Assembly (NCBI RefSeq): GCF_000018465.1
Contig: NC_010085.1
Span: 1,530,001-1,562,000 of the forward strand
Length of the DNA: 32,000 bases
Origin: Nitrosopumilus maritimus SCM1
GTDB lineage: Archaea; Thermoproteota; Nitrososphaeria; Nitrososphaerales; Nitrosopumilaceae
Reading direction: 5' to 3'
The notes beneath the pieces were generated by a model, which had not been told where the DNA came from, made no database searches, and saw nothing but the letters and a program-made list of their open reading frames with translations. Both the position numbers and the translations under genes were made by a program. Positions 1-22,576 of the stretch are shown here, piece after piece (positions within the stretch are counted from its first letter, which is position 1; each line of letters begins with the position of its first letter).

Positions 1-44
1 AAAACATTCTTACCAATTATAACCATAAGATGGTGTTGTAAACT

Positions 45-1619
45 GTGAATAAATCAAAATATCTAATCATTATTGCCAGTACAATAGTGCTAGCAGCAGT
101 CGGATTATACGCCTATGATGAATTAATAGAAGACAAGGAATCCAAAATACAAGAGACTCGATCAGAAATAACAATACAAACAGAACCTGAATCAATTGAG
201 ATTGTAGAGCTTACAGGAACACCACTGGATAACTATTCTCCTGAAGAACGAGATCAGCATTGTGGTAAATCAGATTTTAAATCAACTCGATATATTGAAG
301 AGTTTGAGATCCCTACACCTTGTACTCAACCTCTTTCAATAATTACAGACTCTGAAGATAATGTATGGTTTGTTCAATCAAATACCGGAAATGTGGCAAT
401 GTTTGATCCAATAACAAAAGAATTTGTAGAATACCAAAATGATCAATGGAATTTGAAAACGGCATCAATGATGTGGGGAATAACAATAACTGAAGATAAT
501 GAGATATGGTTTACAGATGAAACAAATGATTACATTTGGAGGTTTTCAATTGATGACAAGACATATTCAAAAATAGACTTTCCTAGTGAAATAGAAAACG
601 CTTTTCCACAAAAATTAGAATATCATAATGGATATTTCCTGATAAATGATTTTACAGGAAATCGAATTGTAATTTTAAATCATGAAAATTTGGATAATGG
701 AGAAACAGAGTATGCAGTAATTGCAACACCCTCAGGATTCTTTACTAGTCAGACATCCGTTGATGACGATGAAAACATTTGGTTTGTGATCTGGAAATAC
801 CAAAAAGAAGCAATTTTGATTAAAACAAATTTTGAAACACGCGAAACTGAAAATTTCATTCTTCCATCTAGCATTAGTGCACCAAATGGAGTTTCAGTTG
901 GGCCTGCAGGAAATGTGTGGATTGCAGATACTGCAAGTAGTTCATTTTACAGATTCAGCCCAAATGATAACAAAGTAATTGAATTTGTTACATCTGATGC
1001 ACCAATATGGACATTTGGAAATTCGTCAGGATTGATTAAAACACCAATTACTAGACCGTATTGGAATTCATTTGATTCAAATGGAAACATGTGGTTTAAC
1101 CAACAAACAGCAAATAGATTAGCGGTGTTTGACCCTGTTTCAGAGTCATTATTAGAGTACGATATTCCGTCTAAAAATCCGGGATGGGCAGATTGTGGAG
1201 AACTGGTAGACTGTGGGACAGCACAAAGTTTTGATTTTACAGTTCAAAACGGGCAGGTTTGGTTTACAGAATGGGTTGAAAACAATATCGGGGTTTTAGA
1301 TACCTCAGTAGACATTCCTGTAACATTAGATGTAGAACAAAATGAGATTGAGATTAAACAGGGTGAGCAGAAGAAAATCTTTCTTACAATAAAGCCACAA
1401 GAAAAACAAAAAGTGGAATTATTTTTATCTACATCTACCAATTCGGAATTGATTGGAACAGAAACAAATACAGAACCCATATCAATTTCAGAACAAAGTC
1501 AAATTCCAGTCACAATACTTGTTGATGAAAATGCACATCAAGGAGATTATAAAATTCTATTAAGTGCACATCTTTTAGATGTAGTTGTATCAGAATATGT
1601 TACAGTCAAAGTAATTTAG
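45..1619 (+). CDS. Membrane-anchored/secreted beta-propeller repeat protein (Vgb/streptogramin-lyase-like or NHL-like blades) with C-terminal Ig-like region
   Basis: 524-aa ORF with GTG start and hydrophobic N-terminus (YLIIIASTIVLAAVGLYAY). A blade motif recurs six times: DNVWFVQSNTGNVAMFDP, NEIWFTDETNDYIWRFS, ENIWFVIW, GNVWIADTASSSFYRFSP, GNMWFNQQTANRLAVFDP, GQVWFTEWVENNIGVLD. The family name is from pattern only. Confidence 0.7.
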   Translation: MNKSKYLIIIASTIVLAAVGLYAYDELIEDKESKIQETRSEITIQTEPESIEIVELTGTPLDNYSPEERDQHCGKSDFKSTRYIEEFEIPTPCTQPLSIITDSEDNVWFVQSNTGNVAMFDPITKEFVEYQNDQWNLKTASMMWGITITEDNEIWFTDETNDYIWRFSIDDKTYSKIDFPSEIENAFPQKLEYHNGYFLINDFTGNRIVILNHENLDNGETEYAVIATPSGFFTSQTSVDDDENIWFVIWKYQKEAILIKTNFETRETENFILPSSISAPNGVSVGPAGNVWIADTASSSFYRFSPNDNKVIEFVTSDAPIWTFGNSSGLIKTPITRPYWNSFDSNGNMWFNQQTANRLAVFDPVSESLLEYDIPSKNPGWADCGELVDCGTAQSFDFTVQNGQVWFTEWVENNIGVLDTSVDIPVTLDVEQNEIEIKQGEQKKIFLTIKPQEKQKVELFLSTSTNSELIGTETNTEPISISEQSQIPVTILVDENAHQGDYKILLSAHLLDVVVSEYVTVKVI

Positions 1620-2269: not shown

Positions 2270-3424
2270 TTAGTCAGGTCTTTTCTCTAACAAGATATCT
2301 TTGAAAATTATCTTATCATCACGTAAAATTTTCAAAGTAGTAGTATCGCCTACAGATTTTTCCTTTTGTAAATGAGTTATAAGATCATCAACCTTTCTTA
2401 CCTCAACATCATCAATTGCCAGAATTACATCACCTCCTAAAGTGTATTGTATTCCATTTTTTTCTATAATTTCAGATGATCCCATTAAATCAGATTTATC
2501 TGCAGGACCATCTTTTACTACATTCATTATCATAATACCTGTTGCGTCTTCTAGTTCTAAAATATCAGCAATATCAGGAGTGATGTTTATGCTAGTAATA
2601 CCAACCCAAGGATGGTTGTATGAACCGTCTTTAATCAAAAAAGGGATGATTTTGTTTACAGTATTTGATGGGATCGCAAAGCCTACACCAGAAAAGCCAC
2701 CATCACGAGAATATATTGCAGTAGTTACTCCCACCACATCTCCTTTCATGTTTAGTAATGGGCCTCCTGAATTTCCTGGATTAATAGCTGCATCAGTTTG
2801 AATCACATCAGGAATAGTAAAACCAGAATTTTGCGATGGAATCAATCTACCAATTTGACTTACAATTCCAGCAGTCATAGAACCAGATAATCCATAAGGA
2901 TTGCCAATTGCTGTGACCCTTTCTCCTACTTTAATCGAATCAGAATTACCTAGAATCAAAGGATCAAGAATAGATTCATCAACATTTATTTTAATTACTG
3001 CCAAATCAGAATATGCATCAGTACCAACAACTTTGGCGTTATATGATCTTCCATCAATAAATGTCACAATTATTTTCTTTGCATTTTCTACAACATGGCT
3101 ATTAGTAATGATATTTCCTGTGTCATCATATACAAAACCTGATCCGACTCCACCAGAATTTATTATTGATGATTTTGTTACTGCAATGCTTACAATTCCA
3201 GATTCAGATTGTTCAAAAATTTGAGTAAGAGACAAATTATCAGGGGAATTCTTGATAGATTTGTCTCTTACTTCGGAATCTAGGATCTCAGAGGATGTGG
3301 TTTCAGCAGTTACATTCACGATTCCAGGAACGAATGAAGCAGAAAAGATCGTCGCAACAAGCACAACTGCCGAAACTATAGATAATCCTCCAAGTGAAAT
3401 CTTTGATTCATACATTTTTACCAA
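2270..3424 (-). CDS. htrA: HtrA/DegP-family serine protease with C-terminal PDZ domain
   Basis: 384-aa ORF with N-terminal TM (LGGLSIVSAVVLVATIF). Trypsin-fold triad contexts are present: TNSHVV (His), YSDLAVIK (Asp), GNSGGPLLN (Ser). The C-terminal segment is PDZ-like (GGDVILAIDDVEV). The longest ORF starts at TTG 3424; the first ATG is at 3415. Confidence 0.88.
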   Translation of the reverse strand: MVKMYESKISLGGLSIVSAVVLVATIFSASFVPGIVNVTAETTSSEILDSEVRDKSIKNSPDNLSLTQIFEQSESGIVSIAVTKSSIINSGGVGSGFVYDDTGNIITNSHVVENAKKIIVTFIDGRSYNAKVVGTDAYSDLAVIKINVDESILDPLILGNSDSIKVGERVTAIGNPYGLSGSMTAGIVSQIGRLIPSQNSGFTIPDVIQTDAAINPGNSGGPLLNMKGDVVGVTTAIYSRDGGFSGVGFAIPSNTVNKIIPFLIKDGSYNHPWVGITSINITPDIADILELEDATGIMIMNVVKDGPADKSDLMGSSEIIEKNGIQYTLGGDVILAIDDVEVRKVDDLITHLQKEKSVGDTTTLKILRDDKIIFKDILLEKRPD

Positions 3425-4531: not shown

Positions 4532-4915
4532 CTAGTCTGATCTAAATATTCCAATTACAAAAAATGAAAGCATTGTAAATATCAATCCATGAGTAATCAA
4601 AGTGTCAACATCAGGCGTAGGTGGGGTATGAGATAATATGAACGAAACAATTGAGAATAATTCCACTGTAGTAATTGTGGCAAATGCGCATAATACCAAA
4701 AATAATCTCGTAGTTTTAAATTCAGAATAAGTAATCAATGCAACTATACTAAGGAACAATCCTAAGAGAGCAGAAGATATGTGAATAAATATGTGAACTT
4801 TATTTTCATCAGTAAAATTTTCACTGGTAAGTGGAATAAGAATTACTAATCCTATGAGCACTAAAATTCCAAGAAGTTTAAATTTTGATTTATTATCTAA
4901 TGTTGAAACTTGCAA
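4532..4915 (-). CDS. Small integral membrane protein (about 4 TM), unknown function
   Basis: 127-aa ORF with four hydrophobic segments. TTG start at 4915, with no in-frame ATG that keeps the first TM. It has its own upstream motif (see 4945..4981). Confidence 0.6.
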   Translation of the reverse strand: MQVSTLDNKSKFKLLGILVLIGLVILIPLTSENFTDENKVHIFIHISSALLGLFLSIVALITYSEFKTTRLFLVLCAFATITTVELFSIVSFILSHTPPTPDVDTLITHGLIFTMLSFFVIGIFRSD

Positions 4916-4988: not shown

Positions 4989-6710
4989 TCAAGTCTTAAT
5001 TTGAAAATTTGTAACATATTTTGTTTTAGATAGTACAACAATAGAAATTAAAATAATTGCAAGAATAATTGAAACACCTAATGGAAATTCAGGTGCAACG
5101 TTAACTGCAATCTCAACATATTCATCAGTACCACCAATATTTTCAATTCTGATTGTGACATCACCAGCCTCTTTTTCAACAAACACAAAGTTCTCAAAAG
5201 TTCCTCCACCAGTTGCAAGTCCAGATTTACGGTGAATTTCAGTACCATTCTTGATTAATACAAAATCATAGGCAATATCACCTGTTGTTAAGCCAGTATC
5301 TTTTTGATAAAAACTCATTATGAATTCAGATTCACCAAGACTCAAAATATTTGGAAACCATGTAAGATCAACCAAGTATTTACCATTAGTTGGATTCGAT
5401 GCAGAAACACTTTCAAGCACAATTGGAAATTTGGCATTTTCAGGCTCATTTATCGCTACTAAAAAGTTGACATTTGCCAATGAAAATCCTTCAATTTCAG
5501 ATATTCTGAATTTTATTGTTCCAACATTTTCAGGAGAAAAATTGTATTGAAAACTGTCTGTCTTGCCAGTATTTACGCTGCCAGAAACACGTTTGTTGAA
5601 TATAGTATTTTCATTTTGAATTAGTTCTATCCCATATTCTATATTTTTATTAGTTTTATCAGTGAAAATTTCATCTGTTTTTACAAAAAATGTAACATCT
5701 TCTCCGGGAGTAATTACTTCAGGTTCCCAAGACAGAAAAACTCTATATCGATAATCAGGTGTAACTGCTTCTAATGGAAATCCATCACCTTGACCAGGCC
5801 CTAACTCAAAATACATTTGTGAATCTGATTTTTGTATTGCATGTTCTTTGATTTGATTTAGATCTTCTCTGTTTAATACCATGTGTACTGTTCTTCCATC
5901 AAGAGAGTAATCATCAATTGTAACAACTTCAGCAGGTAATAAAATATCATTTACCTTTGCTTCATATTTTGTGTGAAGTAACTCTGAAAATTCTGGAGCA
6001 ATACGTACTTCTTGATGCACTACGCTTAGTTGCTCAAAGTCTTGATTCCAATCAAAGGGCATAGAAAATGATATCATATTTGAATCAAACTTAAAATTAT
6101 TGACCGAATCAAAATATGAAATTACATTTACGTTATGAGTATTTTCTTTTGAATCGGTTACTTGGAAAGTATTATGTTCAGCAAGACTAATTGCACCAAC
6201 TAACTCCATTCGTTTGTCAAGGAAATTAAAATCAGAGTCGACAGTAAGAATTTCTACTTTATATTCATAAAGACCTCCAGAATCAAAGATAGGTCCAGTC
6301 ATTATCACAGGTTCTGTTGCAGTTCTCATCCATGACTCAATTGCAGGGGATTTATCACCTATAACCTTGATTTCATTTGAATTATCATAGATTGTTTTAA
6401 TTGTTAAATTTCCCAAATCGTCATGAAACAGTTTTCTAAAAATTTGCTTACCGTCTTTTATCATCTCAAATGCATAAGTTACATGTTCTACAGCAGCTTC
6501 ACTTTTTGCATTTTTGAGGTTGATTGTAATGTATCGTTCAGGATCTTCTACATCAAAAACTGAGGGGCTAATATCAATAGATAATATCACATCACGTCCA
6601 TCTAGAGTAACGGGAGGATGAGTTTCTCCACCTAATCCATGTCCAAATGCAGTAGGAACAAAGCTAGAGGCAACAATTCCCATCATAAAAATCAACAAAA
6701 ATTTTTTCAT
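4989..6710 (-). CDS. Secreted surface protein with PEF(G)-CTERM-type sorting signal and two copies of a ~95-aa beta-sandwich-like domain
   Basis: 573-aa ORF with ATG start abutting the upstream stop (6711). The signal peptide ends ..PTAFG|HGLG. The C-terminus is NVAPEF + TM (PLGVSIILAIILISIVVL) + basic tail (SKTKY). Paralog of 13991..15379. Confidence 0.85.
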   Translation of the reverse strand: MKKFLLIFMMGIVASSFVPTAFGHGLGGETHPPVTLDGRDVILSIDISPSVFDVEDPERYITINLKNAKSEAAVEHVTYAFEMIKDGKQIFRKLFHDDLGNLTIKTIYDNSNEIKVIGDKSPAIESWMRTATEPVIMTGPIFDSGGLYEYKVEILTVDSDFNFLDKRMELVGAISLAEHNTFQVTDSKENTHNVNVISYFDSVNNFKFDSNMISFSMPFDWNQDFEQLSVVHQEVRIAPEFSELLHTKYEAKVNDILLPAEVVTIDDYSLDGRTVHMVLNREDLNQIKEHAIQKSDSQMYFELGPGQGDGFPLEAVTPDYRYRVFLSWEPEVITPGEDVTFFVKTDEIFTDKTNKNIEYGIELIQNENTIFNKRVSGSVNTGKTDSFQYNFSPENVGTIKFRISEIEGFSLANVNFLVAINEPENAKFPIVLESVSASNPTNGKYLVDLTWFPNILSLGESEFIMSFYQKDTGLTTGDIAYDFVLIKNGTEIHRKSGLATGGGTFENFVFVEKEAGDVTIRIENIGGTDEYVEIAVNVAPEFPLGVSIILAIILISIVVLSKTKYVTNFQIKT

Positions 6711-7364
6711 TTAAATTACCTCAAATGAGTTCAAAATTGAATTAAAGTCTGATTTTTCTAGTTCAGTTAGATTTTCAGGAGATTTGCCAGAGTATTGAAT
6801 CATGTAGAGTTTGTTGTCTTTTAGAAATAATAACTGTTCAGAAAAACTATCATCAGTATTTTTCTCACTATCAAAAGAAACTATTGCCCAATCATTTGAT
6901 TTTGATATGCGTTTAATTGGAATTTTAATCTCTTCTGAGTTCATCATATCAATTTGTTTAGATATGTAATTCTCCAGTTGAAAGTTTTTTGACTGTACAT
7001 CAAAAACAGAAACTAAAAAGCGTCTATCAGAGTCTTTATCTAGATAAATTCCATCAACATATCCTTTTGATTTTAAGTAAGCAAGTTCTTCTGTACGTAT
7101 AGTTTCTGAAGCTACTCGAATATCCCATTTATCATTTGGTTTTGATAATTGAAATGATAACTCACTATTATGATACATGTTATTTTCAAGAAATGATGGT
7201 TGTTTGGGATCAAATATGGTAATTTCTCCAAAACTAGACATTATTGTAATGCCAGAATCATCATAAGAAAATTGTGTAAAAAGCACCATCAATCCTGCAG
7301 TCGATACAATGACTGCAATGATTAAAGATAGTCTAACAAGTTTTACTTCTTTGGAAATATTCAA
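6711..7364 (-). CDS. N-terminally anchored extracytoplasmic protein, unknown function (weak PsbP/Mog1/DUF1795-like pattern)
   Basis: 217-aa ORF with TTG start 2 nt after the cupredoxin stop. TM helix is LSLIIAVIVSTAGLMVLF. The patterns ELSFQLSKPNDKW ... FNSILNSFEV are only weakly suggestive of a PsbP-like fold. Confidence 0.65.
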   Translation of the reverse strand: MNISKEVKLVRLSLIIAVIVSTAGLMVLFTQFSYDDSGITIMSSFGEITIFDPKQPSFLENNMYHNSELSFQLSKPNDKWDIRVASETIRTEELAYLKSKGYVDGIYLDKDSDRRFLVSVFDVQSKNFQLENYISKQIDMMNSEEIKIPIKRISKSNDWAIVSFDSEKNTDDSFSEQLLFLKDNKLYMIQYSGKSPENLTELEKSDFNSILNSFEVI

Positions 7365-7366
7365 TT

Positions 7367-8377
7367 TTACACAGGACTCGCTTTTCTTTCAGGATAATTA
7401 TAAGTAGGTTTTTTTCCTTTCATATATAGCACTATAACTGCCAACATAATTGCAGGAACTATAATCATTGCTACGGCAATCTCATAATAAAATTGCAAAG
7501 TATCTCGAGGTTGTACAATTTTTTCAGTAGTAGTTTTCTTTTCATAATTTTCATAAACCATAGCTGTAAAATCTCCTAATCTAGCAGTGGCATCAGGTCC
7601 AAGATTGATTTGTGTTTCTGCTACAGAACCATAAGGTTTGATATTTGATATTTTAACAATGATAGGGCCTGGTTCTTCAAATATCCATTGTCGGTAATCC
7701 CCACCCGCACCTGATACTGCGCCTTCATCTTTGTATAACACTTGATTATTTTGTAAAATAGCTATATCATATTCTAACTTTCTTAATGGCTGATCATATA
7801 TTGCATCATAAAAACGATAGATGAAGTTTGTTTTTTCATGGGTTTTAATGACTCGAGGTTCCCATGAAAAATTAATTTCAATTGAACCATCAGGAGTTAT
7901 AAGAAATGTAGGGAACTGTTCATACTTTTTTCCTGTAGCATCATGGGGATAATCAGGAATAAATGGTTTCACAAAAATAATTCCTTCCATCCAGGGATGA
8001 ATTACACAAAAGTAATTGTAATCTCCAGCTTTTTCAAATGTATATGACCAAGACTCGTCTGGCATAAATCTTAAACTATCAAACAGTCCATCAGGCTCAC
8101 CAAGATTCTTGGCATCCATCCAATCAAATCTTCCTGCACCACTGCCACTGGTAACTGTATGCCCTTCTCTATCATCATTTACCCATGTTACAGTATCCCC
8201 TTCAACAATAGATAATTCAGGTGGATCATACCAAACTTTAGCAGGGGTATTTAGTTCAGGATTAAATGCACCAAAAGGAATACTTACAACAAAATCCTCA
8301 GCAAAGGAATTTTGTATGTTTCCTGTAAATAGAAAACTTGTTGCAACAACAAACAAAATGAAAAATTTTTTTTGCAT
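7367..8377 (-). CDS. Membrane-anchored type-1 (blue) copper protein: amicyanin-like cupredoxin domain plus a ~95-aa domain
   Basis: 336-aa ORF with ATG start and signal peptide (FILFVVATSFLFTGNIQNSFA). Cu ligand pattern is EGHTVTSG ... YFCVIHPWMEG (His...Cys-x2-His-x2-Met). The second domain is FSWEPRVIKTHEKTNFIYRF...GAGGDY...ISNI. C-terminal TM is IAVAMIIVPAIMLAVIVLYM followed by KGKK. Confidence 0.85.
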   Translation of the reverse strand: MQKKFFILFVVATSFLFTGNIQNSFAEDFVVSIPFGAFNPELNTPAKVWYDPPELSIVEGDTVTWVNDDREGHTVTSGSGAGRFDWMDAKNLGEPDGLFDSLRFMPDESWSYTFEKAGDYNYFCVIHPWMEGIIFVKPFIPDYPHDATGKKYEQFPTFLITPDGSIEINFSWEPRVIKTHEKTNFIYRFYDAIYDQPLRKLEYDIAILQNNQVLYKDEGAVSGAGGDYRQWIFEEPGPIIVKISNIKPYGSVAETQINLGPDATARLGDFTAMVYENYEKKTTTEKIVQPRDTLQFYYEIAVAMIIVPAIMLAVIVLYMKGKKPTYNYPERKASPV

Positions 8378-8400
8378 ATGTTCAAAAACATGATTTTGAC

Positions 8401-8436
8401 TCTAATTAATTATCATATTGTTTTATCATTGTACTA
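8401..8436 (-). promoter_or_regulatory. Bipartite upstream element TAGTACAAT-N20-AATTAGA, 23 nt before ATG 8377
   Basis: Reverse complement of 8378..8437 reads cTAGTACAAT gataaaacaatatgataatt AATTAGA gtcaaaatcatgtttttgaacat ATG. Confidence 0.55.
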
Positions 8437-8787
8437 GTGTTTCTCAAATTCTTACACGTGCTTGTCTTACATTGTTTAATGTTTGAGAATTCAAAATATT
8501 CTGTAATGATGTGATTGCAATCGTTTGCACTGCATCAATATTAACCGCTTATGTATTTTGGCATGTTGCGCCTGCAAAAGTTGCTGAAACAGTAAAAATT
8601 ATTGAAATACAGAAGCAGGATGTATTGCAGAAACAAGAGACGGATTTGCAGTAAATATTGGACCATGTGACGCAGAAGAAGGTGATTACATCATGGCAAT
8701 GATAGATACAAAGGTAAAGGAAAGAGAAGCTGCCATGAACACTTAAAATCATAGGATTTTAGGCGTGAGTTTTATTCAAACATACAA

Positions 8788-8979
8788 TCAAGAGACTTTT
8801 TTTGTGCTATCATGTCTTGGTTGAGTTCTAAGTTTTACACCACAACATGGACACCGTAATGTAGGTATTTGAAAAAATCCCTCACAAACACTACAACGTT
8901 TGAATCCATTTAGATATTTATTTGATACAGCAACAGATGAAATGAATTCATTACAAACTCCTTTGCATCTATATGGCAC
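8788..8979 (-). CDS. Small cysteine-rich zinc-ribbon protein
   Basis: 63-aa ORF with GTG start. Cys pairs are CKGVC, CSVC and CPCC, followed by a basic tail. It is preceded by the bipartite promoter element at 8998..9035. Confidence 0.5.
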   Translation of the reverse strand: MPYRCKGVCNEFISSVAVSNKYLNGFKRCSVCEGFFQIPTLRCPCCGVKLRTQPRHDSTKKVS

Positions 8980-9387: not shown

Positions 9388-9555
9388 ATGTTATACGTTA
9401 AATATACAACAATACAACAAAAATTATTGAGTACATCAATATTGCCAGTAGAATCATATGAATTTCTATTTACAGAACCTCAAGAAGTATCATATCATTG
9501 CAAGTCTAATCCATGGATGAAAGGCGAAATCTCAGTAAAGAAGAGTAGATTCTAG
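9388..9555 (+). pseudogene. C-terminal fragment of an amicyanin-like cupredoxin, with the His ligand position occupied by Asn
   Basis: Hand translation gives MLYVKYTTIQQKLLSTSILPVESYEFLFTEPQEVSYHCKSNPWMKGEISVKKSRF*. Its tail aligns to ESWSYTFEKAGDYNYFCVIHPWMEGIIFVK of ORF 7367..8377. No N-terminal half (signal peptide, first His ligand) exists in any frame upstream. Confidence 0.55.
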
Positions 9556-10227
9556 TTGTTCAGATATCTATTTTCAATAATTTTAATCATGGGAATTTTC
9601 GTGAGTCCTGTATTTGCTCAAGAGGTAAAAAATCCATCATTAATTATTGAGACAATAGAGATTCCAGCCAAAGAATTTGACACAATTCAACGTGAGGCAT
9701 CAATTGTTGAATTAGATAATATTCATGCAATAAGTTGGCAAGTTACAATTGATAACAATCTCAATTATGTAAATTCAGAGGGGAATGCAGTCTTTAGACT
9801 CTATGATACCAACTCTGAAGATAAATTCATCGAGATAGGTATGGGTTCAAAACCTGAAGACAAGTTTTGGGTTGCAGTGCAGACTCCAAAAGAAGGATAT
9901 GTTGTAGTTCACAAGGATTTGGAGAGAGGATGGTATCCAGAAGCTAAATCCATCGCATCCTTTACTGACAGAGCAGGGCTGACTGTAAATAACGGAGCAA
10001 GAATTGTAGTTACTAATCTAGACATTGGAGAATTTGCAATTGGTTCTTACTCAGTGTATGGAAAAGAAGGTTCTACTGAACCTACTGCAGTAAATACAGG
10101 CAGTCTAATTTTAGAAATAATGTCAGGAGATCCTGCAAAGAATATTTTTGCGCTATTTCCATTTTACATAGCTGCAGGTGTGGGGATCATAGTAGGAGTA
10201 CTTTACATAACTAAAAAGCGTTCATAG
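9556..10227 (+). CDS. Secreted protein with C-terminal TM anchor and basic tail, unknown function
   Basis: 223-aa ORF. TTG start directly follows the TAG of the fragment ORF. Signal peptide is LFSIILIMGIFVSPVFA|QE. C-terminal TM is FALFPFYIAAGVGIIVGVLYI followed by TKKRS. Confidence 0.75.
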   Translation: MFRYLFSIILIMGIFVSPVFAQEVKNPSLIIETIEIPAKEFDTIQREASIVELDNIHAISWQVTIDNNLNYVNSEGNAVFRLYDTNSEDKFIEIGMGSKPEDKFWVAVQTPKEGYVVVHKDLERGWYPEAKSIASFTDRAGLTVNNGARIVVTNLDIGEFAIGSYSVYGKEGSTEPTAVNTGSLILEIMSGDPAKNIFALFPFYIAAGVGIIVGVLYITKKRS

Positions 10228-12606: not shown

Positions 12607-13926
12607 TTAAAATCCAAGAGTTCTATACAAATTTCCTAAAGATGAACTACGTCTTCCTGAAGACAGTAATTTGAGTCGTTTGGATGCTTGTGCTGCAGCT
12701 TCTTTTTTCTTTTTTGATTCCACAACACTAGGCCACCAGTCAGGAAAACAAGAGTTACCAATTAGTTCCGGATCAACTGAAAGTTTGAACTGACTGCCAT
12801 ATCCATGTCTGCCCTTGGATTCTGTCTTTGATACTGCAATACCAGAGTTTACCAATTCAACTAGCATCTCAGAGAACCTCCGATAGGATATCTGCCTAGT
12901 ATCAGGCGATATAATCTTCTGATACTGTTTGAACAGATCAGATGTGCTGTGCCATCCTTCATCATTGATATATGTGAGTCTGGAGAGTGCAGCACATGCA
13001 AGCCTGAAATGATACGAGCCTCCAGAGATGATAGTAGTTATTTGATTTTTTTGCAGTTGGGAGACTGCCTTATCCACGTGTTTTTTTGAAATTTTTTCAT
13101 TTTCAGTTCCTGCAATCTCACCGCTTGTTCTTAGAAGATCAATTGCGCGTCTTGCATCACCGTGCTCTTCAGAACTGATATCAGCGCAATACTGCAAAAC
13201 ATCATCATCTATTTTTTTCAAAAATGATTTTTTTGCTCTATTACGAATTATCTTTAACACATCACTTTGAGAATAAGAATCAAAATAAATCTCAGAAGTG
13301 CCAATTCTCGATACTACTCTGTCATCTAAATTAAATTCAGATAATACCTTGTTTGATATAGTTACAATACACATGTGTCTTTTTAGTGTACGAAGCTTTT
13401 CAACTAGGACAACAATCTTGTAAACAAAGTCCGAAGGCTTGCCTCGTTTGTCATAGAATAACGTATCAAATTCATCAAGACATAATACAAAAATAGAATT
13501 ATCAGATTTTTCAAGTTTTTGTAAAATTAGTTTCTCAAATATTCCAAAAGCATAATTCATGCCCTGAGCGTTTTTGAGATTTTCATGGCCTAGTTCAGAC
13601 AATATCAGATTAATGCATCCAAAAACTGTTTTTGCTTTTCTTAAATTGACATAACAAAAATCAACATCCAAGTTTTGGCAAACAAACTGAACAATGGTAG
13701 ACTTGCCTGAACCACTCCTTCCATAAATTGATACAAGTGGAACAACTAGTCCCTTTTCATAAGATAGCAAGAACTTTACGAGTTTCTTTGATTCAGATTC
13801 CCTTCCAATAATGGAGTTTGTGACAGATAGATTGTCAAGAAATGACTTGTCTGAAAATATAGAATTCTGTGCACGTACATCACCTACAATCTTCTCTAGC
13901 GCTTTTTTGTCCACATAATGTTCCAC
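12607..13926 (-). CDS. cdc6: Orc1/Cdc6 AAA+ replication initiator
   Basis: 439 aa. Motifs are IIGRESE, Walker A GRSGSGKST, Walker B LCLDEFD, and a C-terminal winged-helix segment (SYRRFSEMLVELVNSGIAV). There is an extra ~50-aa basic/Ser-rich tail. GTG start at 13926, with a second in-frame GTG at 13914. Confidence 0.9.
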   Translation of the reverse strand: MEHYVDKKALEKIVGDVRAQNSIFSDKSFLDNLSVTNSIIGRESESKKLVKFLLSYEKGLVVPLVSIYGRSGSGKSTIVQFVCQNLDVDFCYVNLRKAKTVFGCINLILSELGHENLKNAQGMNYAFGIFEKLILQKLEKSDNSIFVLCLDEFDTLFYDKRGKPSDFVYKIVVLVEKLRTLKRHMCIVTISNKVLSEFNLDDRVVSRIGTSEIYFDSYSQSDVLKIIRNRAKKSFLKKIDDDVLQYCADISSEEHGDARRAIDLLRTSGEIAGTENEKISKKHVDKAVSQLQKNQITTIISGGSYHFRLACAALSRLTYINDEGWHSTSDLFKQYQKIISPDTRQISYRRFSEMLVELVNSGIAVSKTESKGRHGYGSQFKLSVDPELIGNSCFPDWWPSVVESKKKKEAAAQASKRLKLLSSGRRSSSLGNLYRTLGF

Positions 13927-13990: not shown

Positions 13991-15379
13991 TTACATCCTA
14001 ATGAGAGAAAAAGTCTCATATTTTCTGGCAATTACAATTATTCCAATTATAGAAACAACAAGTATCAAAATTGCAATAGTACCAAATTCAGGTGCAACCA
14101 TTATTCCAAACTCAGTTTCTTGTCCAGTATTTCGTATGTTTTCAAATTTAATTGTTGTAGGACCTGTTTGGTCTTCAGCAAATGTGAATTTTTCAAATTC
14201 ACCACCAACTGTTGCAGTTCCAGATACCCGGTATAACTCCGCTCCATTTTGAATGATTACAAAAGAATAATCAGAATTTCTTAAAGGTTCATTTGTCCAT
14301 CCGTCTCTAATAGTAAAGACAAAGTTTGTTTCAACTCCTGGTTCAAGATCTATAGGATCCCATGACAAGTTTACTTTGAAGTCTTCACTCTTTGTAAATG
14401 CCTCTAATGGAAATGATATTTTTTCATTTGTAGTTAAAGTGAAAACAATATTGTCTGGTAGTGGCTCATCAGATTTTTTCATCTCATTTTTTATGAATCT
14501 TAGATGGTCTTGCAATAAAACAAAGTGAACTATTCTCTCATCTTCTTCTGTGTAATCATCAATTGATACTGAAGCTTTGAACAACTCAATTCCATTTGCG
14601 TATCCTGAATAACTAGGACTCAAAAATTCAATGAAATGTTTTGGAAAATGTACTTCTTCGTGCACAACTGTAACGTGAGACATGCTGTTCTCACTCCAAT
14701 CAAAAGGCATCTCAAAAGTTACTTGTTTTGTTGCAGGATCATATTGGAAATTTTGGATTTTATCAAAATAAGATTTCATTCTAAATTCTACATCATTTCC
14801 TTCAGTATCTTCTTGAGGATGAGAAGTGGTTTCAACAAGTGTCAAATCTGCACGATATACACCTGAATCTTCTATGATGTTAGTTGGCTCATCAATGGTT
14901 CTAACTTCAATCTCAAAAGTAAACAATCCACCTGAATCAAAGACGGGGCCTGCAATCTCTATTGGAGATGATTCAGTTGCATGATATGCTCCCAAAAGTG
15001 AATCTTGCTCTCCATTAATTACAAAATTATCATATCCTTGTTGTGATAGTACAGTTATTGGTAAAACACCATTTTCTGTGAAAAAGTAGTTTCTGAAAAT
15101 CATCTCATTGCTATGGAACAATCCAATGAGAAATGTCACATTTTTTGCAGGCTCGTCTGTCTCTTTGTCAGTTGCAGTAATTGTGATTTGTTCTTGCTCA
15201 CTTTCAAAGTACATTGGCATCTCAACTGAAATTGAGATTTCTTTTCCAGCAACATCTACTGAAGATATAGTATCAATTCCCAATCCATGACCATAAACAC
15301 TACTAGCTGGAAACAGCAAACATGCGGCTAGAGCCAAAATTGAAAGTTTTGTAATTGACATCATATCAAATCTTATCAA
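13991..15379 (-). CDS. PEFG-CTERM surface protein, paralog of 4989..6710 (one copy of the ~95-aa domain)
   Basis: 462 aa. The longest ORF starts at TTG 15379; a likely ATG is at 15364. The signal peptide ends ..SSVYG|HGLG. Blocks shared with the paralog are GPVFDSGGLF, FEMPFDWS, VVHEEV and IDDYTEEDERIVHFVL. The C-terminus is MVAPEFG + TM + ARKY. Confidence 0.85.
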   Translation of the reverse strand: MIRFDMMSITKLSILALAACLLFPASSVYGHGLGIDTISSVDVAGKEISISVEMPMYFESEQEQITITATDKETDEPAKNVTFLIGLFHSNEMIFRNYFFTENGVLPITVLSQQGYDNFVINGEQDSLLGAYHATESSPIEIAGPVFDSGGLFTFEIEVRTIDEPTNIIEDSGVYRADLTLVETTSHPQEDTEGNDVEFRMKSYFDKIQNFQYDPATKQVTFEMPFDWSENSMSHVTVVHEEVHFPKHFIEFLSPSYSGYANGIELFKASVSIDDYTEEDERIVHFVLLQDHLRFIKNEMKKSDEPLPDNIVFTLTTNEKISFPLEAFTKSEDFKVNLSWDPIDLEPGVETNFVFTIRDGWTNEPLRNSDYSFVIIQNGAELYRVSGTATVGGEFEKFTFAEDQTGPTTIKFENIRNTGQETEFGIMVAPEFGTIAILILVVSIIGIIVIARKYETFSLIRM

Positions 15380-15382: not shown

Positions 15383-16096
15383 TTATTTTATTGTCAGTAA
15401 TTCTTCAACCTTTTGAAGTAATTCATCCATTGTTGTGGCCTCTAGTATTGGTTGCAAGTCATTAGGATCTTTTGCGCCAAGTGCAGATAGCGAATAGATG
15501 TAATCAATTGTAGGAGTATCAGTTGTAAGATAGTATTGTTCTAAAACATGTTCTAATGAATGGGGGTCAACTACTTGCGGCAATGCCTGTTTGATAATCT
15601 TCTTCTTCCACATAGCAACTAGCTCTTCCCATTGTTCTAGTGAGATGTTCTCATCAATTTCAGGAATCATTTCAACTTCAGCTTGAATGTACATTTTTGC
15701 TTCGGTTCCAATTTTTTCGTGTATCTCAGAGATTTGTTGATGACCTTCAACTGAAAGTGGATCATAGTTTTCAGGTTGAGGAATTGAAGGTGGAATAATT
15801 TTTTTAATTCTAAATGAATTTCTGCCTAGTGTTTCAATGTGGAGTTGCAGTCCATCCATTTCAACGTCTGAGCATTTTGTAATTTTTGCAATGGTTCCTA
15901 CCATTTTAGGAGAGTTCCAACCACTAACAGAATTTGTCTCATCAATCAGACATACACCAAACTGACCATCACCTAGCATGCAGTCATCAACTAGCTGCTT
16001 GTAGCGGGGCTCAAAAATTCTCAAAGGAAGTTCTTGTCTAGGGAACAAGACCAAGTCCAATGGAAAAATTGGAATGACTCTAGTTTCTGCCAACAA
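15383..16096 (-). CDS. Stand-alone Lon N-terminal (LonN, PUA-like) domain protein
   Basis: 237 aa. IPIFPLDLVLFPRQELPLRIFEPRYKQLVDDC is the hallmark start of the Lon substrate-binding domain. TTG start. No AAA+ or protease part. Confidence 0.8.
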   Translation of the reverse strand: MLAETRVIPIFPLDLVLFPRQELPLRIFEPRYKQLVDDCMLGDGQFGVCLIDETNSVSGWNSPKMVGTIAKITKCSDVEMDGLQLHIETLGRNSFRIKKIIPPSIPQPENYDPLSVEGHQQISEIHEKIGTEAKMYIQAEVEMIPEIDENISLEQWEELVAMWKKKIIKQALPQVVDPHSLEHVLEQYYLTTDTPTIDYIYSLSALGAKDPNDLQPILEATTMDELLQKVEELLTIK

Positions 16097-17567: not shown

Positions 17568-17602
17568 AAAATTTTAAAAATTGAAAAATATGTTGTTTAG
17601 GA

Positions 17603-17911
17603 CTATTGTCCTAAGATGATAAACATCATAACTATACCGTAGATTGCGATTGATTCGACCATACCTACGAAGATGAACACCTTAGATTGTAAAGCTGGGT
17701 TCTCACTAATGACTGCAAGACCTGCTGCACCTACTTGACCAAGACCAATACCTGCACCAAATGCTGCAAGACCAAATGCTAGACCAGCACCGAGAATCTT
17801 CAAAGAGTCTGAACTTGCTGCTGCATCTCCTTCTGCTGCATATGCAATACTAGTAGATCCTGAAATAGAAATTACAGCTGCTGCCATAAGTAACAAGACT
17901 ATAGTTTTCAT
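17603..17911 (-). CDS. atpK: A-type ATP synthase proteolipid (subunit K/c), single hairpin with signal-like N-terminal extension
   Basis: 102 aa. Helix 1 is GAGIGLGQVGAAGLAVISENP; helix 2 is FIFVGMVESIAIYGIVMMFIIL and carries the carboxylate Glu. GGAGG lies 10 nt upstream of the ATG. Confidence 0.9.
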   Translation of the reverse strand: MKTIVLLLMAAAVISISGSTSIAYAAEGDAAASSDSLKILGAGLAFGLAAFGAGIGLGQVGAAGLAVISENPALQSKVFIFVGMVESIAIYGIVMMFIILGQ

Positions 17912-17921
17912 GGATGATGTG

Positions 17922-17926
17922 CCTCC
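17922..17926 (-). promoter_or_regulatory. Shine-Dalgarno-like GGAGG 10 nt upstream of atpK ATG
   Basis: The minus strand reads ttgaGGAGGcacatcatccATG. Confidence 0.45.
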
Positions 17927-17960
17927 TCAAAGTCCATATTTAAATCATGGTGAGATTGGA

Positions 17961-18092
17961 TTATACTTTTTCTAGTGCTTTCTTTTTGAAAGAACTTAGA
18001 TCGTCTTTAACAGACTGTGCAAAATTTTCATGTTCGCTTTCTAGGGAGTGTTTAGAATCTTCAACAATTTTCTTAATTTCTTCTTTGCCCAT
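17961..18092 (-). CDS. Candidate 43-aa charged helical protein inside the ATPase operon (possibly a short peripheral-stalk H/G-like subunit)
   Basis: Hand translation gives MGKEEIKKIVEDSKHSLESEHENFAQSVKDDLSSFKKKALEKV*. The ATG lies 2 nt after the atpD stop, with GGAGAG in the atpD 3' end. The ORF stops 49 nt before atpK. Confidence 0.5.
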   Translation of the reverse strand: MGKEEIKKIVEDSKHSLESEHENFAQSVKDDLSSFKKKALEKV

Positions 18093-18094
18093 TA

Positions 18095-18724
18095 TTATCT
18101 ACTCTCCATCTTAGCCTTCACTTTTTTTAACTTTGCGAATTCCTCTCTTTCTCTTTCCTCAAGAGTGGCTATGATGAATCTTACTTTTTGTTGATACTGA
18201 GGAATAATGACGTTTTCAAGTGCGTTTAGTAATTTCTGAGTTTTTTCTAATGCTTTTGCAAGACTGAAAATTGAATTTTCATATTCTGCGGCTTTACAGA
18301 TTTTTGGCAAAAGCTCTTTGATCTGTTTTGCTGCTCTATCAATTGAAGAGTTTGTATCAGCAAAACCATATGGCATTGATTTTGTATCTTTTTCAGTAAC
18401 AGATAGTGCAGGAATTTTTACATCAACGACTCTTCTGACATTTACATCTACTTCCATTACTGAAGGAGTGGATTCGGCAACAGAGTCTACAGTTGAAGAA
18501 CCTAATGCCAAGTATGCTTCATTTACAGAACTGTAGATGTCTTGGAGCGGTTCCCATATTCCACCTCTAGCTTTTGAGGCTTCTTCAATCATCTCTTCGA
18601 TGTTTTTTAGGAGAACTTTACGCTTGTCATCTAGAATTTTCTGCACCATTACGGCTACTTGACTAGATTTTTTGTATTTGAAAAGTTCAATTTTTGTTGC
18701 AGCAACATTTTGTCCAAATGACAT
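18095..18724 (-). CDS. atpD: A-type ATP synthase subunit D (central stalk)
   Basis: 209 aa. The coiled-coil N- and C-termini and the N-terminus NVAATKIELFKYKK are typical for A/V-type D. It sits directly after atpB. Confidence 0.9.
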   Translation of the reverse strand: MSFGQNVAATKIELFKYKKSSQVAVMVQKILDDKRKVLLKNIEEMIEEASKARGGIWEPLQDIYSSVNEAYLALGSSTVDSVAESTPSVMEVDVNVRRVVDVKIPALSVTEKDTKSMPYGFADTNSSIDRAAKQIKELLPKICKAAEYENSIFSLAKALEKTQKLLNALENVIIPQYQQKVRFIIATLEEREREEFAKLKKVKAKMESR

Positions 18725-18728
18725 TTTG

Positions 18729-20114
18729 CTACTCTTCCTTGTAATATTGATCTACGTACTTATCTTTGATTTTTGTAATTTCGTTTCTTGGTAGTTTAGA
18801 TACAATCTTCCATAAGATACCTAATGTCTCTTCAATGGTTCTATTCTCATCAGTTGCTTGTGAAAGGAATTCATTTTCAAAGACATCACCGACATCCATG
18901 TATTTCAAATCGATTTCAGTAAGTCCTGCTTTACCTACAATTCCTGCAAGTGCTCTGACTTCTTGTGCTCTAGAATATGCATCATAAACTTGATTTGAAA
19001 TTTCACCATGATCTGCTCTGGTACTTCCTTCACCAATACCGTCTTTCATCAGTCTTGAGAGACTCATCAAGATGTTTACTGGTGGATAGACTCCTTGTCT
19101 GAACAAATCTCTACCAAGTACAATTTGTCCTTCTGTAATGTAACCAGTAAGGTCAGGAATTGGGTGAGTAATATCATCAGAAGGCATTGACAAGATTGGA
19201 ACTTGTGTAACACTACCTTTCTTTCCGTTTAGTTTTCCTGCTCTTTCATAGATTGTTGAAAGGTCAGTGTAAAGATAACCAGGATAACCTTTTCTTCCAG
19301 GTACTTCTTCTCTTGCAGCACTAATCTCTCTGAGTGCTTCTGCATAGTTTGTCATATCTGTAAGAATAACTAGTACGTGCATTCCTAATTCAAATGCCAA
19401 ATATTCAGCGACAGTTAATGCAACACGAGGAGTAATAATTCTCTCAATTGCAGGATCGTCTGCTGTGTTTAAGAAAAGAACACTTCTTTTTAGAGCGCCA
19501 GACTCTTCAAGACTTCTTCTGAAATATTCTGCTTCACTGTATTGCACACCAATTGCTGCAAAGACTACAGCGAAATCATCTTGTGTACCAATTACACTTG
19601 CTTGTCTTGCAATTTGAGCTGCTAAGAGGTTGTGTGACATACCAGAACCTGAAAAGATTGGAAGTTTTTGTCCTCTTACAAGAGTAATCATTCCATCAAT
19701 TACTGAAACACCAGTTTGGATGAAGTCTTTTGGATATTCACGTTGTTCTGGGTTCATTGGTTCACCGTTAATGTCAATAAATTGATCAGCAATAGGATCT
19801 GGCAGTCCGTCTTTTGGTCTGCCTAAACCATCAAAGACTCTACCAAGTACTTCTCTTGAAACTGGCATCTCCATAACTTTGCCGACAAATTTTGCATTTG
19901 TTGCAGCAATGGATAATCCAGTAGTTCCCTCAAAGACTTGGACGATTGCTTTACCGTTTCCAACTTCGAGAACTTTACCTAATCTTCTTTCACCGTCTTT
20001 AGTTTCAACTTCAACTAATTCGTCAAATGCTGCATTCTCAACATCATCTACAATAACTAGAGGACCTTTGATTTCTGCAATCTTACTGTATTGAACTCCG
20101 CCTTCTGCTGTCAA
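18729..20114 (-). CDS. atpB: A-type ATP synthase subunit B
   Basis: 461 aa with [11 protein letters not shown] and [24 protein letters not shown] start overlaps the atpA stop as TTGA, with GGAGTG upstream. Confidence 0.97.
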
Positions 20115-21889
20115 TTTGATACTTTCACTCCTGTAATTGATTTGAATTCTTCTTGCATGTCTGCATCTAGTTGATCAAGTTTTGGCATCTCATCATCTTT
20201 GACATCCATTCTTGCTTTGAGAAGTGTTGTGATACTTTTCATTGCACGAATATCTGCAAGAGGAGTTCCTTCCTTGATTGCTTGTTGACCTTTCTTGTAA
20301 AAGTCAACTAGTAATTTCATTAACTTGTATTGTTTCTCTGGGCTACAATAAGTGTCAACATCATCAAATGAGTTTTGTTGTAAGAGACCAATCTTTACCA
20401 TTCTTGCAACTTCAAGAATTAATTTTTCTTCATCTGGAAGTGCTTCAGGTCCTAAGAGTCTGACAATTTCTTTTAGTGTATCTTCTCTTTGTAAGACACC
20501 ATAAACTTCACTTCTAAGACTTAGCCAGTCTTCGTTGATGTTCTCACCCCACCACTTTGCAATGTCTGCAAGATAACCAGAATAGCTGTTCATCCAGTTA
20601 ATTGATGGATAGTGTCTAGAGTATGCTAGTTTTGCATCCAAAGCCCAGAATGTTTTGATAAATCTCATGGTGTGAGTTGTAACTGGTTCTGTAAAGTCAC
20701 CACCAGATGGTGAAACAGCACCAATCAAAGTTACAGAACCATCACGGTCTGGACTTCCTGCTGCTCTAACACGACCTGCTCTTTCATAGAATTCTGCTAA
20801 TCTTGATGCAAGATATGATGGATAGCCTTCTTCTGCTGGCATCTCTTCTAGTCTACCACTCATCTCTCTGAGTGCTTCGGCCCATCTACTTGTTGAATCT
20901 GCTACAAGTACAACGTCTTTACCCATATCTCTGTAATATTCTGCAATTGTGACACCAGTGTAGATACTTGCTTCTCTTGCTGCTACCGGCATGTTACTGG
21001 TATTTGCAACAAGTACTGTTCTGTCCATGAGTGGTTTTCCACTACGTGGGTCTTTGAGGTGTGGGAACTCCACAAGTACTTCTGTCATTTCGTTTCCTCT
21101 CTCACCACAACCGATGTAAACTACAACTTGGGAATCTGCCCATTTTGCAATTTGGTGAAGTGTAACAGTCTTTCCTGTTCCAAATGCACCTGGGATTGAA
21201 CCTGTTCCTCCTTTTGCAATTGGGAAGAATGTGTCAATTACACGTTGTCCGGTGAGTAGTGGAACTGTTGGATCGTATCGGTTCTTGTATGGACGTGGTT
21301 TTCTTACAGGCCATCTGTGATACATTTTGAGTTCGACAGTTTCACCTTCTCCCTCAGTTGTTGCTAATACAGTTTCTAAATCATAATCTCCTTCTGATAC
21401 TAAGTTTGAAATTTTTCCACCTTTGTGGTCTGGTGGAACCATGATAGAGTGCTCAATAAGATCAGTTTCTTGAACAACGCCAATTACATTTCCTGCTGCT
21501 ACTTCATCACCATTACTAACTGATGGGACAAAGTGATATTTTTTGGCCATGTCAACTGGAGTAGTTGTAATACCTCTTCCGATAAAGGAACCAGAAGCTT
21601 CTGATAATGCTCTTAGTGGTCTTTGAATTCCATCATAAAGTTGTCCAATAATTCCAGGACCTAACAAAACACTAAGTGGGTTTCCAGTACCAATTACTGG
21701 TTCACCTGGTTTTAGTCCACTGGTTGATTCGTAAACTTGAATGAATGCTACATCTCCGGTTAATCTAATTACTTCACCGACTAATTTTGAATCGCCGACA
21801 GTTACAGTTTCATACATTTTTGCTTCAGACATACCGTCTGCTCTAACTGCAGGTCCACTTACCCAAACAATTCTACCTTGAGCTGCCAT
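20111..21889 (-). CDS. atpA: A-type ATP synthase catalytic subunit A
   Basis: 592 aa with Walker A GAFGTGKT and [20 protein letters not shown]. The length is normal, so there is no intein-sized insertion. Confidence 0.97.
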
Positions 21890-21890
21890 C

Positions 21891-22487: not shown

Positions 22488-22503
22488 TGAGTCGCGTAAA
22501 TCC

Positions 22504-22524
22504 GTAATAGATTTTAATGTTTGG
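22504..22524 (-). promoter_or_regulatory. atpE-operon promoter element CCAAACATTAAAATC-ta-TTAC; TATA-like core ends 22 nt before TTG 22487
   Basis: Reverse complement of 22504..22524 is CCAAACATTAAAATCTATTAC, which matches the element before atpC at 19 of 21 positions. Confidence 0.6.
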
Positions 22525-22544
22525 GAATTGCAATTCAGAAAGAT

Positions 22545-22564: not shown

Positions 22565-22576
22565 CGTTGGATTATC

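Follow-up and report, generated by a model that had tools for sequence, protein, structure and literature searches.

The energy metabolism of ammonia-oxidising archaea (AOA) is run on copper proteins, and to our knowledge neither the enzyme that follows ammonia monooxygenase nor the copper route to the surface cuproproteins is known. A 32,000-nt stretch of Nitrosopumilus maritimus SCM1 (contig NC_010085.1, positions 1,530,001 to 1,562,000; here called the window) holds three adjacent genes, Nmar_1678, Nmar_1677 and Nmar_1676, which we call A, B and C, and the question raised by this locus is what a tethered cupredoxin and its two partners do together at the cell surface. By their sequence and gene order the three are one conserved, tightly coupled operon of surface-tethered proteins. 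The cupredoxin A and the sorting signal of C are of known kinds, and the PsbP fold of B is known with its setting new; for the N-terminal module of C (N-module) we found no description in Pfam, NCBIfam, the PDB or the literature searched. The coordinates of all features are collected in Table 1.

An earlier, sequence-only reading had described three minus-strand open reading frames (ORFs) with gaps of 2 and 0 nt, a GAGGT 7 nt before the ATG at 6710, products that are all exported or anchored, and a single transcript. The coordinates, both gaps and the GAGGT were confirmed, the A-B junction reading TAA-AA-TTG and the B-C junction TAA directly followed by ATG, and hydrophobic segments in A, B and C support export or anchoring. 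The product of C is 100% identical to Nmar_1676 of SCM1, all three proteins were assigned by exact look-up, and the start of B in the window is the GenBank start. In GenBank C starts 8 codons earlier than in RefSeq (WP_238523175, 565 aa). This longer form has a positively charged MKK n-region and gives the 0-nt junction with B; as homologues conserve the longer MK... signal peptide, we regard the 0-nt junction as the better start call.

Further we ran hidden Markov models (HMMs) of A, B and C on 85 loci, comprising 80 of the 354 GTDB species-level hits together with metagenome contigs. Besides the window, 14 loci show the colinear order A>B>C> (> and < giving the direction of transcription); they belong to Nitrosopumilus, Nitrosarchaeum and Marine Group I single cells, and across them the identity of B drops to 40-50%. 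The A-B and B-C junctions are 5 nt or less, or overlap by 4 nt, in the window and in 13 of the 14 further loci (L003 is not included), hence the tight packing cannot be put down to chance in a single genome. The GAGGT before C lies inside the reading frame of B, in its invariant terminal FEV codons. At the 13 junctions examined, TTTGAGGT is found 7 nt before the start of C in 11, and the Glu codon is GAG in those 11 and in L015. The A-B pair also precedes a paralogue C' with a repeat tail and no PEFG signal in L017-L019, and in a Nitrosotenuis locus (L023) the linkage is kept in a changed order, <B <A ... TM130> HTH> C>, where TM130 and HTH stand for homologues of the four-transmembrane protein Nmar_1675 and of the helix-turn-helix regulator Nmar_1674. 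Next to Nitrosotalea-type C paralogues A-B-C was not found in the 85 loci. The synteny check that the sequence-only reading had proposed thus shows the three-gene order kept beyond close relatives, with rearrangement in Nitrosotenuis. Three A-B-C loci (L007, L009 and L010, 65-68% identity to SCM1) are filed under metagenome-assembled genomes of a Rhodospirillales bacterium and a Planctomycetota bacterium (OFTM118, OFTM39, OFTM151) and are probably mis-binned thaumarchaeal contigs.

Upstream of A lies a conserved element, TAGTACAATGATAAAACAATATGATAATTAATTAGAGTC, which includes a pair of ACAAT..GAT half-repeats and, some 25-30 nt upstream of the ATG, the TATA-like box ATTAATTA. Its footprint is conserved in L002, L005, L007, L008 and L010 and diverged in L011, L017 and L019, and the remaining intergenic region around it is not conserved. 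The core (8412-8432) is unique in the window, where 0.04 matches would be expected. We infer that the element is the promoter region of the operon and that its upstream block may be an operator; it is also a candidate binding site for Nmar_1674. A sigma-70 promoter and terminator scan was set aside as not applicable to archaeal promoters. One promoter region, the lack of internal spacers and the conserved Shine-Dalgarno-like site all point to the single transcript that had been proposed.

From its profile match and ligand conservation, A is a bona fide type-1 cupredoxin. Residues 47-136 match Pfam Copper-bind (PF00127) with 32.7 bits against a cut-off of 21.2, and at least 95% of 41 homologues have the ligands H73, C124, H127 and M130, in C-x2-H-x2-M spacing, in agreement with the type-1 ligand set and short amicyanin-type loop claimed before. 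Within the PDB, A is closest in sequence to a Cu nitrite reductase, namely to its C-terminal cupredoxin domain (9cck, 4e-13), with amicyanins next (3e-10). Identity as an amicyanin orthologue was ruled out by a score of 43.5 bits against the TIGR02657 amicyanin equivalog, below its cut-off of 110, and by the missing methylamine dehydrogenase context, as no mau genes are found in the window. The second domain of A (residues ~155-262) has no Pfam match at E up to 10 and is homologous to residues 311-409 and 442-541 of C (blastp 5e-10 and 2e-9).

For B the sequence-only reading had given an N-terminal anchor, which is borne out by a hydrophobic segment, and no recognisable family, which did not stand. 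Modelling and profile searches place B in the PsbP/Mog1 alpha-beta-alpha fold. Residues 62-216 score 25.8 bits against Pfam PsbP_2 (PF18933; E 1.3e-5), just under the gathering threshold of 27, and one B homologue carries a precomputed PF18933 hit. In an AlphaFold2 model built with 16 homologues the ectodomain has a pLDDT of about 90, and the best Foldseek matches of the model in the PDB are CyanoP and PsbP (E 4.5e-5 to 4e-4, target TM-score 0.55-0.64). All of the top 17 are PsbP, CyanoP or PPL proteins (E 4.5e-5 to 1.2e-3, target TM-score 0.50-0.64), followed by SciW/EagT6, Mog1 and DcrB; a PDB sequence search with the B profile found nothing. Among the 16 homologues of B no position keeps a His, Cys or Met, hence B is unlikely to bind a redox metal. 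Other proteins with the PsbP/Mog1 fold work as chaperones, assembly factors or extrinsic subunits.

The signal peptide and PEF(G)-CTERM sorting signal formerly read in C were both recovered, and the protein is more than a sorting-signal protein, having a conserved N-module with a metal-site-like signature. Its hydrophobic segments are residues 3-23 and 534-567, and it contains zero cysteines. The AlphaFold2 model (46 sequences) is an all-beta stack with a mean pLDDT of 85.6, for which Foldseek returned generic MG/Ig stacks only (complement, alpha-2-macroglobulin, integrin, transglutaminase). When the four domains of C (d1 to d4) were aligned to each other with hhalign, the two stalk domains d3 and d4 were related at 99.5% probability and d1 to d3/d4 at 70-80%; d2 is unique. 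None of the domains has a Pfam match at E up to 10, and profile searches gave no PDB sequence relative of C or its N-module.

An exhaustive profile search with the N-module found 670 clusters (50% identity) at E <=1e-3 and 398 at <=1e-10; for most of the 150 best hits, 20-50 residues precede the module. There are several C-family paralogues per genome. Their tails are either a PEF-CTERM anchor or the thaumarchaeal "IPxWIKNNAxWW" repeat, hence the family looks confined to thaumarchaea; the N-module apparently defines a large unnamed family restricted to them. In the repeat-tailed paralogues (L017-L019 and many others) the last stalk and the PEFG-CTERM are replaced by at least two copies of 'IPxWIKNNAxWWAxGxIxDxxFxxGIQyLI', a repeat without a family name that presumably forms a domain by which thaumarchaeal proteins attach to the surface in another, non-covalent way. 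The window itself holds a second C-family gene, whose product has HGLGID as mature N-terminus and lacks the H76/H96/D160 triad described below.

To follow conservation in the C family we used 132 near-full representatives at 50% identity. Close homologues of C have an invariant G-H-G-x-G-x-E after the signal peptide (AFG/HGLGGE, cleaved at the slash), and H96, H232, E234, H276, D220, W221, D266 and D267 are invariant as well. In the wider family position 24, always after a G at the predicted signal-peptidase site, is H in 90 representatives and D in 31 (23%), and position 29 is E or D. At least 128 of the 132 keep D201, H232, E234, D266 and H276, and the nearly invariant positions are G25, F95, G100, G146, Y148, Y199, D201, P218, W221, H232, E234, N254, D266 and H276. 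A further set, H76/H96/D160, is present or absent together (37/3/10/82, Fisher 5e-20). In our alignments the invariant set of the N-module looks like the signature of a metal site that needs a free N-terminus. Mutual information of positions 24 and 29 (top: D224, L228 and the 192-195 stretch, domain 2) was set aside, being confounded by phylogeny, and Met-rich Cu(I)-type linkers were dropped as a feature of the family, occurring in only about 3 of 147 representatives.

The module of three genes that had been proposed is conserved, and it proved too narrow, as further genes are linked to it: Nmar_1675, Nmar_1674 and, in relatives, a CopC-CopD fusion. Nmar_1675 has four hydrophobic segments and a weak match to DUF7471 only, and Nmar_1674 matches Pfam HTH_24, TrmB and HTH_5. 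In about 39 loci C-family genes have homologues of the two at their side, mostly in the order TM130>HTH>C>, and homologues of Nmar_1674, 165-172 aa long, stand directly upstream of C-family genes in about 39 loci. CopC-CopD(-YtkA)-beta-propeller fusions of 925-990 aa (below CopCD) lie within the fetched flanks of roughly 40 of the 85 C-family loci; they are found with three paralogous subfamilies of C and in differing orientations. The closest relatives of SCM1 (L001-L006) have A>B>C>TM130><CopCD, the Nitrosotalea-type subfamily has CopCD>TM130>HTH>C> in about 20 loci, and orthologues of the second C paralogue of the window have <CopCD about 3 kb downstream and a small cupredoxin about 7 kb away. 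Nmar_1671 matches only the propeller part of the fusions. In L087 a multicopper oxidase gene is directly upstream of the C-family gene, and DsbD, a YHS protein, HtrA and CopCD are also encoded there.

An A-like cupredoxin stands beside a C-family gene in four arrangements: A>B>C>; <B<A...C> (L023); A><X C> (L089-L092); and a fusion, P0329 (L086 144-1544). The fusion joins an N-module by a Met/Ser-rich linker (MSSMSGSMSSMSGS...) to a C-terminal amicyanin-loop cupredoxin (Pfam 34 bits), and has Asp at the mature N-terminus and the triad; it comes from one 2.1-kb metagenome contig only. Among the 85 loci, the triad H76/H96/D160 is carried by all 17 with A and/or B as neighbour, and 0 of the 54 triad-less loci have such neighbours. 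In L092 (a 2.49-Mb genome with 48.5% GC) the order is <CopCD ... A-like PEFG cupredoxin> <X C> C>, and the triad as exclusive mark of a cupredoxin-linked subfamily was downgraded to a tendency by the triad-less C copies there. Judged by L089-L091, P0329 and L092, which stem from other clades, the linkage of cupredoxin and C is recurrent and the triad is a tendency, not a rule. Protein X, of an unknown family, is transmembrane-anchored and ~275-310 aa long (L089 5140-5970, L091 332-1243 and L092 6973-7941, all minus strand). It is encoded on the opposite strand between the A-like and C-family genes, the L089 and L091 copies sharing 34% identity (E 6e-50), and it takes the place of B with no detectable relation to it.

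The sequence-only reading had pointed to proteome abundance as a check, and A and C were both detected in all 10 samples of the SCM1 proteome of Kraft et al. (10.1101/2021.04.01.436977, supplement): C with 14 peptides, 108 peptide-spectrum matches (PSMs) and an abundance of ~2.6-5.5e8, A with 4 peptides, 41 PSMs and ~2.1-3.6e8. Across the samples the two abundances correlate with an uninformative r = 0.34. In the same proteome Nmar_1671 was detected at a lower level, and Nmar_1675 and Nmar_1674 are not listed. We found no mention of Nmar_1676-1678 in the main text of the literature searched, and the searched supplements of AOA omics papers other than Kraft are without entries for them. Under Cu limitation N. 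viennensis induces a cluster of ArsR, a hypothetical protein, two CopC/D, several 'exported proteins of unknown function' and a plastocyanin (PMC7785015, supplement) by 2.7- to 7-fold, with log2 fold changes of 1.4-2.8. In Ca. Nitrosopelagicus brevis a co-expression module holds amoABCX, nirK, Amt, two PEFG-CTERM proteins and membrane-anchored cupredoxins (bioRxiv 10.1101/175141), and in Nitrosopumilus under H2O2 stress PEFG-CTERM proteins rise along with S-layer proteins (PMC6593220).

Taken together, we tentatively favour, at somewhat less than an even chance, a surface copper-handling and redox module in which C would bind the metal, A and C would exchange electrons, B would act as adaptor, and the copper would serve CopCD or surface cuproproteins. 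It is the gene neighbourhood that makes us prefer copper handling to an electron path; of the two functions offered by the sequence-only reading the former is thus favoured, and the ammonia-oxidation electron path is neither supported nor excluded. In such a module the operon would be transcribed from the conserved promoter region upstream of A. A would be a one-electron carrier on an Ig-like stalk, and C would display its N-module on two stalk domains like that of A. The metal site of C would comprise His24, E29, D201, H232, E234, D266 and H276, with copper the most likely metal, plus the H76/H96/D160 triad in this subfamily. B, as a PsbP-like extrinsic adaptor with no metal or redox role itself, may dock or stabilise the A-C pair. 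The module might capture, hold or change the redox state of surface Cu, which would then be passed to a CopC-CopD import route or to extracytoplasmic cuproproteins. The HTH regulator and its four-transmembrane partner could control the module, and the logic would be that of B. subtilis ycnKJI with a cupredoxin added.

Several observations weigh against copper handling by this module. SCM1, like L008, L010 and L011, has only the propeller-only paralogue here and no CopC-CopD fusion in the neighbourhood, and L093 and some other C-family loci have no copper gene within 10 kb. The C copies without the triad that lie beside an A-like gene in L092 make the link of triad and cupredoxin non-exclusive, and the synteny counts are inflated by shared ancestry. 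Zn, Fe, Mn or structural Ca would suit the His/Asp/Glu set just as well, and the N-module is without a Pfam or PDB relative. The domains of C reached an hhalign probability of <=4% against the CopC (PF04234) and YtkA (PF13115) domains of the neighbouring fusions, and C as a CopC/YtkA homologue was dropped, d1-d4 giving no signal. The likeness of the N. viennensis cluster to the C-family neighbourhood is one of gene types. B is not listed in the SCM1 proteome (10.1101/2021.04.01.436977), and the abundance of A and C in copper-replete standard growth fits a constitutive role better than a starvation-only uptake.

As an alternative, the module may serve the energy metabolism of ammonia oxidation, where C could be a novel enzyme with Cu or another metal acting on hydroxylamine, nitric oxide (NO) or a related intermediate, or a quinone-reducing partner, with A as its dedicated electron acceptor and B as an extrinsic stabiliser, in the manner of PsbP at the metal cluster of photosystem II. 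The amounts of A and C in normal growth are substantial and steady, the C family with its at least 670 clusters and several paralogues per genome is apparently thaumarchaea-restricted, the nearest solved relative of A is the electron-donor cupredoxin domain of Cu nitrite reductase, and B has the fold of the extrinsic subunit of a redox metalloenzyme. The amo/nirK/Amt co-expression module of N. brevis also holds PEFG-CTERM proteins and cupredoxins (10.1101/175141), which would speak for this role if they are orthologous to Nmar_1676 and 1678. What makes us consider this role unlikely is that A-B-C is seen only in Nitrosopumilus, Nitrosarchaeum and (rearranged) Nitrosotenuis loci and not by the Nitrosotalea-type paralogues, hence it does not look like a universal core module. 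Moreover it never adjoins amo or nirK in the loci examined, the conserved partners of the C family are CopCD and a regulator, and a catalytic motif or substrate pocket was not identified. We would further give a slim chance to the N-module being a new mono- or binuclear Cu centre that, with the cupredoxin and the PsbP-like subunit, forms a thaumarchaea-specific redox enzyme, either for a hydroxylamine- or NO-oxidising step or as a cupric reductase feeding CopCD. The site of such an enzyme would be the mature N-terminal His/Asp with the His-Glu-Asp-His set, and an extra 2-His-1-carboxylate triad in the cupredoxin-linked subfamily.

A mainly structural role in the envelope, with C as spacer, S-layer-associated protein or adhesin made of Ig-like domains, its conserved residues binding structural Ca2+ or making contacts, and A and B sharing targeting only, seems quite unlikely to us. 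It would account for the generic MG/Ig stacks returned by Foldseek, for d1, d3 and d4 being related beta-sandwiches, for the HtrA protease as recurrent neighbour, and for the paralogues that swap the PEFG anchor for the 'IPxWIKNNAxWW' tail, which fits alternative surface attachment; the joint rise of PEFG-CTERM and S-layer proteins under H2O2 in Nitrosopumilus (PMC6593220) also agrees with it. It does not account for the fusion of N-module and cupredoxin, for the repeated linkage to CopCD and a metal-type regulator, or for an N-terminal H/D that, along with two His, one Glu and two Asp, is kept almost without exception in the 132 representatives. The fusion and linkage would equally lack an explanation if C were a secreted metallo-hydrolase with a His/Glu/Asp site and A and B unrelated operon passengers. 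Many homologues are named 'peptidase' by NCBI, a HtrA gene is nearby, and a Zn site made of the invariant H232-x-E234, H276 and Asp residues is conceivable, but the name is without traceable evidence, no peptidase model of Pfam or NCBIfam matches even at E up to 10, HExxH or another known peptidase motif is absent from C, and a PDB relative was not found. We rejected C as a peptidase and hold a hydrolase to be very improbable.

Table 1. Coordinates of the operon, its products and linked features in the window
Feature	Coordinates	Strand	Remarks
Gene A, Nmar_1678, ABX13574	7367-8377	minus	336 aa, ATG start
A, signal peptide, residues ~1-25	8303-8377	minus	
A, type-1 cupredoxin domain, residues 46-136	7970-8242	minus	
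A, Ig-like stalk, residues ~155-262	7592-7915	minus	
A, transmembrane anchor, residues 294-323	7409-7498	minus	hydrophobic segment, then short basic tail
Gene B, Nmar_1677, ABX13573	6711-7364	minus	217 aa, TTG start
B, N-terminal transmembrane anchor, residues 6-34	7263-7349	minus	hydrophobic segment
B, ectodomain, residues ~40-217		minus	PsbP/Mog1 fold, predicted by AlphaFold2 and Foldseek
Gene C, Nmar_1676, ABX13572	4989-6710	minus	573 aa, ATG start
C, signal peptide, residues 1-23			predicted mature N-terminus His24
C, N-module, residues 24-308	5787-6641	minus	
C, domain 1 (d1), residues 24-188			H76/H96/D160 triad
C, domain 2 (d2), residues 186-308			D201, W221, H232, E234, D266, H276
C, stalk domains d3 and d4, residues 309-425 and 428-541			
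C, PEFG-CTERM, residues 538-565	5016-5099	minus	TIGR04296, 31.8 bits, cut-off 25
GAGGT, Shine-Dalgarno-like	6718-6722	minus	7 nt before the C ATG at 6710
Upstream element of gene A	8398-8437	minus	40 nt
Nmar_1675, ABX13571, TM130	4532-4915	minus	127 aa, four transmembrane segments
Nmar_1674, ABX13570	3567-4310	plus	winged-helix regulator, TrmB/ArsR/MarR type
Nmar_1671, ABX13567	45-1619	plus	524-aa beta-propeller, Vgb_lyase/SGL type
Second C-family gene	13991-15379	minus	462 aa, PEFG-CTERM; C-family HMM 348 bits

Some other genes of the window were also noted. An HtrA/DegP-type serine protease with a PDZ domain (2270-3424, minus strand) recurs near C-family gene, regulator and CopCD, also in L006, L087 and L088. 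A 63-aa protein with CxxC...CxxC zinc-ribbon-like spacing is encoded at 8788-8979 on the minus strand, and its homologues lie a few kb from A-B-C or C-family genes, on either side, in more than 20 loci. On the plus strand a 55-aa ORF (9388-9555) ending ...ESYEFLFTEPQEVSYHCKSNPWMKGEISV resembles the last cupredoxin strands with the loop His changed to Asn; in-frame stop codons just upstream suggest that it is probably a gene remnant. It adjoins the start of the next ORF (9556-10227, plus strand), which encodes a 223-aa protein with a signal peptide, a C-terminal transmembrane anchor and no family match, found in a similar position in L005 and L006. The second C-family gene is flanked by genes for a Lon-substrate-binding-domain protein (15383-16096) and for Cdc6/Orc1 (12607-13926). 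Further along, positions 17600-31704 include genes for subunits D, B, A, E, I and C of an A-type ATP synthase and one for an Amt ammonium transporter (28251-29816). Neither amo nor nirK is found within the 32 kb, nor is there a sortase gene in the window.

The locus is a concrete, expressed three-protein module, and through it an unnamed family comes to light that numbers at least 670 clusters (50% identity). Should C turn out to bind copper, archaea would have in it an equivalent of YcnI and other tethered Cu(II) proteins, one with an electron partner built in; should it be catalytic, it would be a candidate for the missing step of ammonia oxidation. Either outcome would alter the annotation of "hypothetical" and "peptidase" proteins in every AOA genome and metagenome.

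Compared with known systems, A shares with the amicyanin/plastocyanin family (PF00127) its fold signature, all four type-1 ligands and the short C-x2-H-x2-M loop of amicyanin. Amicyanin is a soluble carrier of ~105 aa, whereas A has 336 aa in two domains, with an Ig-like stalk and a C-terminal transmembrane anchor, and it is matched best not by an amicyanin but by the tethered cupredoxin domain of Cu nitrite reductase (9cck). For B the alpha-beta-alpha sandwich of PsbP/CyanoP, also found in DUF1795 Eag chaperones and DcrB, is predicted, and like PsbP it would be an extracytoplasmic accessory protein encoded next to metalloprotein genes. Unlike PsbP it belongs to a non-photosynthetic archaeon with no photosystem, its neighbours are a cupredoxin and a PEFG protein, it has an N-terminal transmembrane anchor, and metal- or anion-binding residues are not conserved. 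The C-terminus of C matches the model of the PEFG-CTERM proteins of Thaumarchaeota (TIGR04296) above threshold; this signal tells of anchoring only and nothing of the N-module, which paralogues pair with the other tail.

The N-module also invites comparison with the histidine-brace copper proteins (LPMOs, CopC, the CuB site of PmoB/AmoB), among which the LPMO-like copper-acquisition proteins Bim1/X325 are named as well. C resembles them in the H-G right after the predicted cleavage site, in its beta-sandwich scaffold, in lipid or membrane anchoring and, in some relatives, in linkage to a copper importer. Unlike in these proteins, 23% of the C-family representatives have Asp at the mature N-terminal position; no homology to the known histidine-brace families was detected. 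We take the resemblance as a lead only.

The closest parallel in gene content may be ycnKJI of B. subtilis, comprising a regulator (YcnK), a CopC-CopD importer (YcnJ) and a tethered Cu(II) protein with an N-terminal His (YcnI, DUF1775), where Cu(II) passes between YcnI and the CopC domain of YcnJ in an exchange (PMC12362106). C is about five times larger than YcnI, with stalk domains and a PEFG-CTERM anchor, and has no sequence relation to DUF1775 or CopC. In SCM1 the regulator and the four-transmembrane gene are present but CopCD is not adjacent, and the module has a cupredoxin and a PsbP-like protein beyond what ycnKJI encodes. In relatives, the neighbourhood of C-family genes has the same three kinds of gene as ycnKJI: a CopC-CopD fusion, a winged-helix regulator and a tethered protein with a predicted mature His. 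Taken as a whole, we suggest that the A-B-C module may be an archaeal variant of the extracytoplasmic copper-trafficking and redox modules, with a new class of metalloenzyme as the minority chance.

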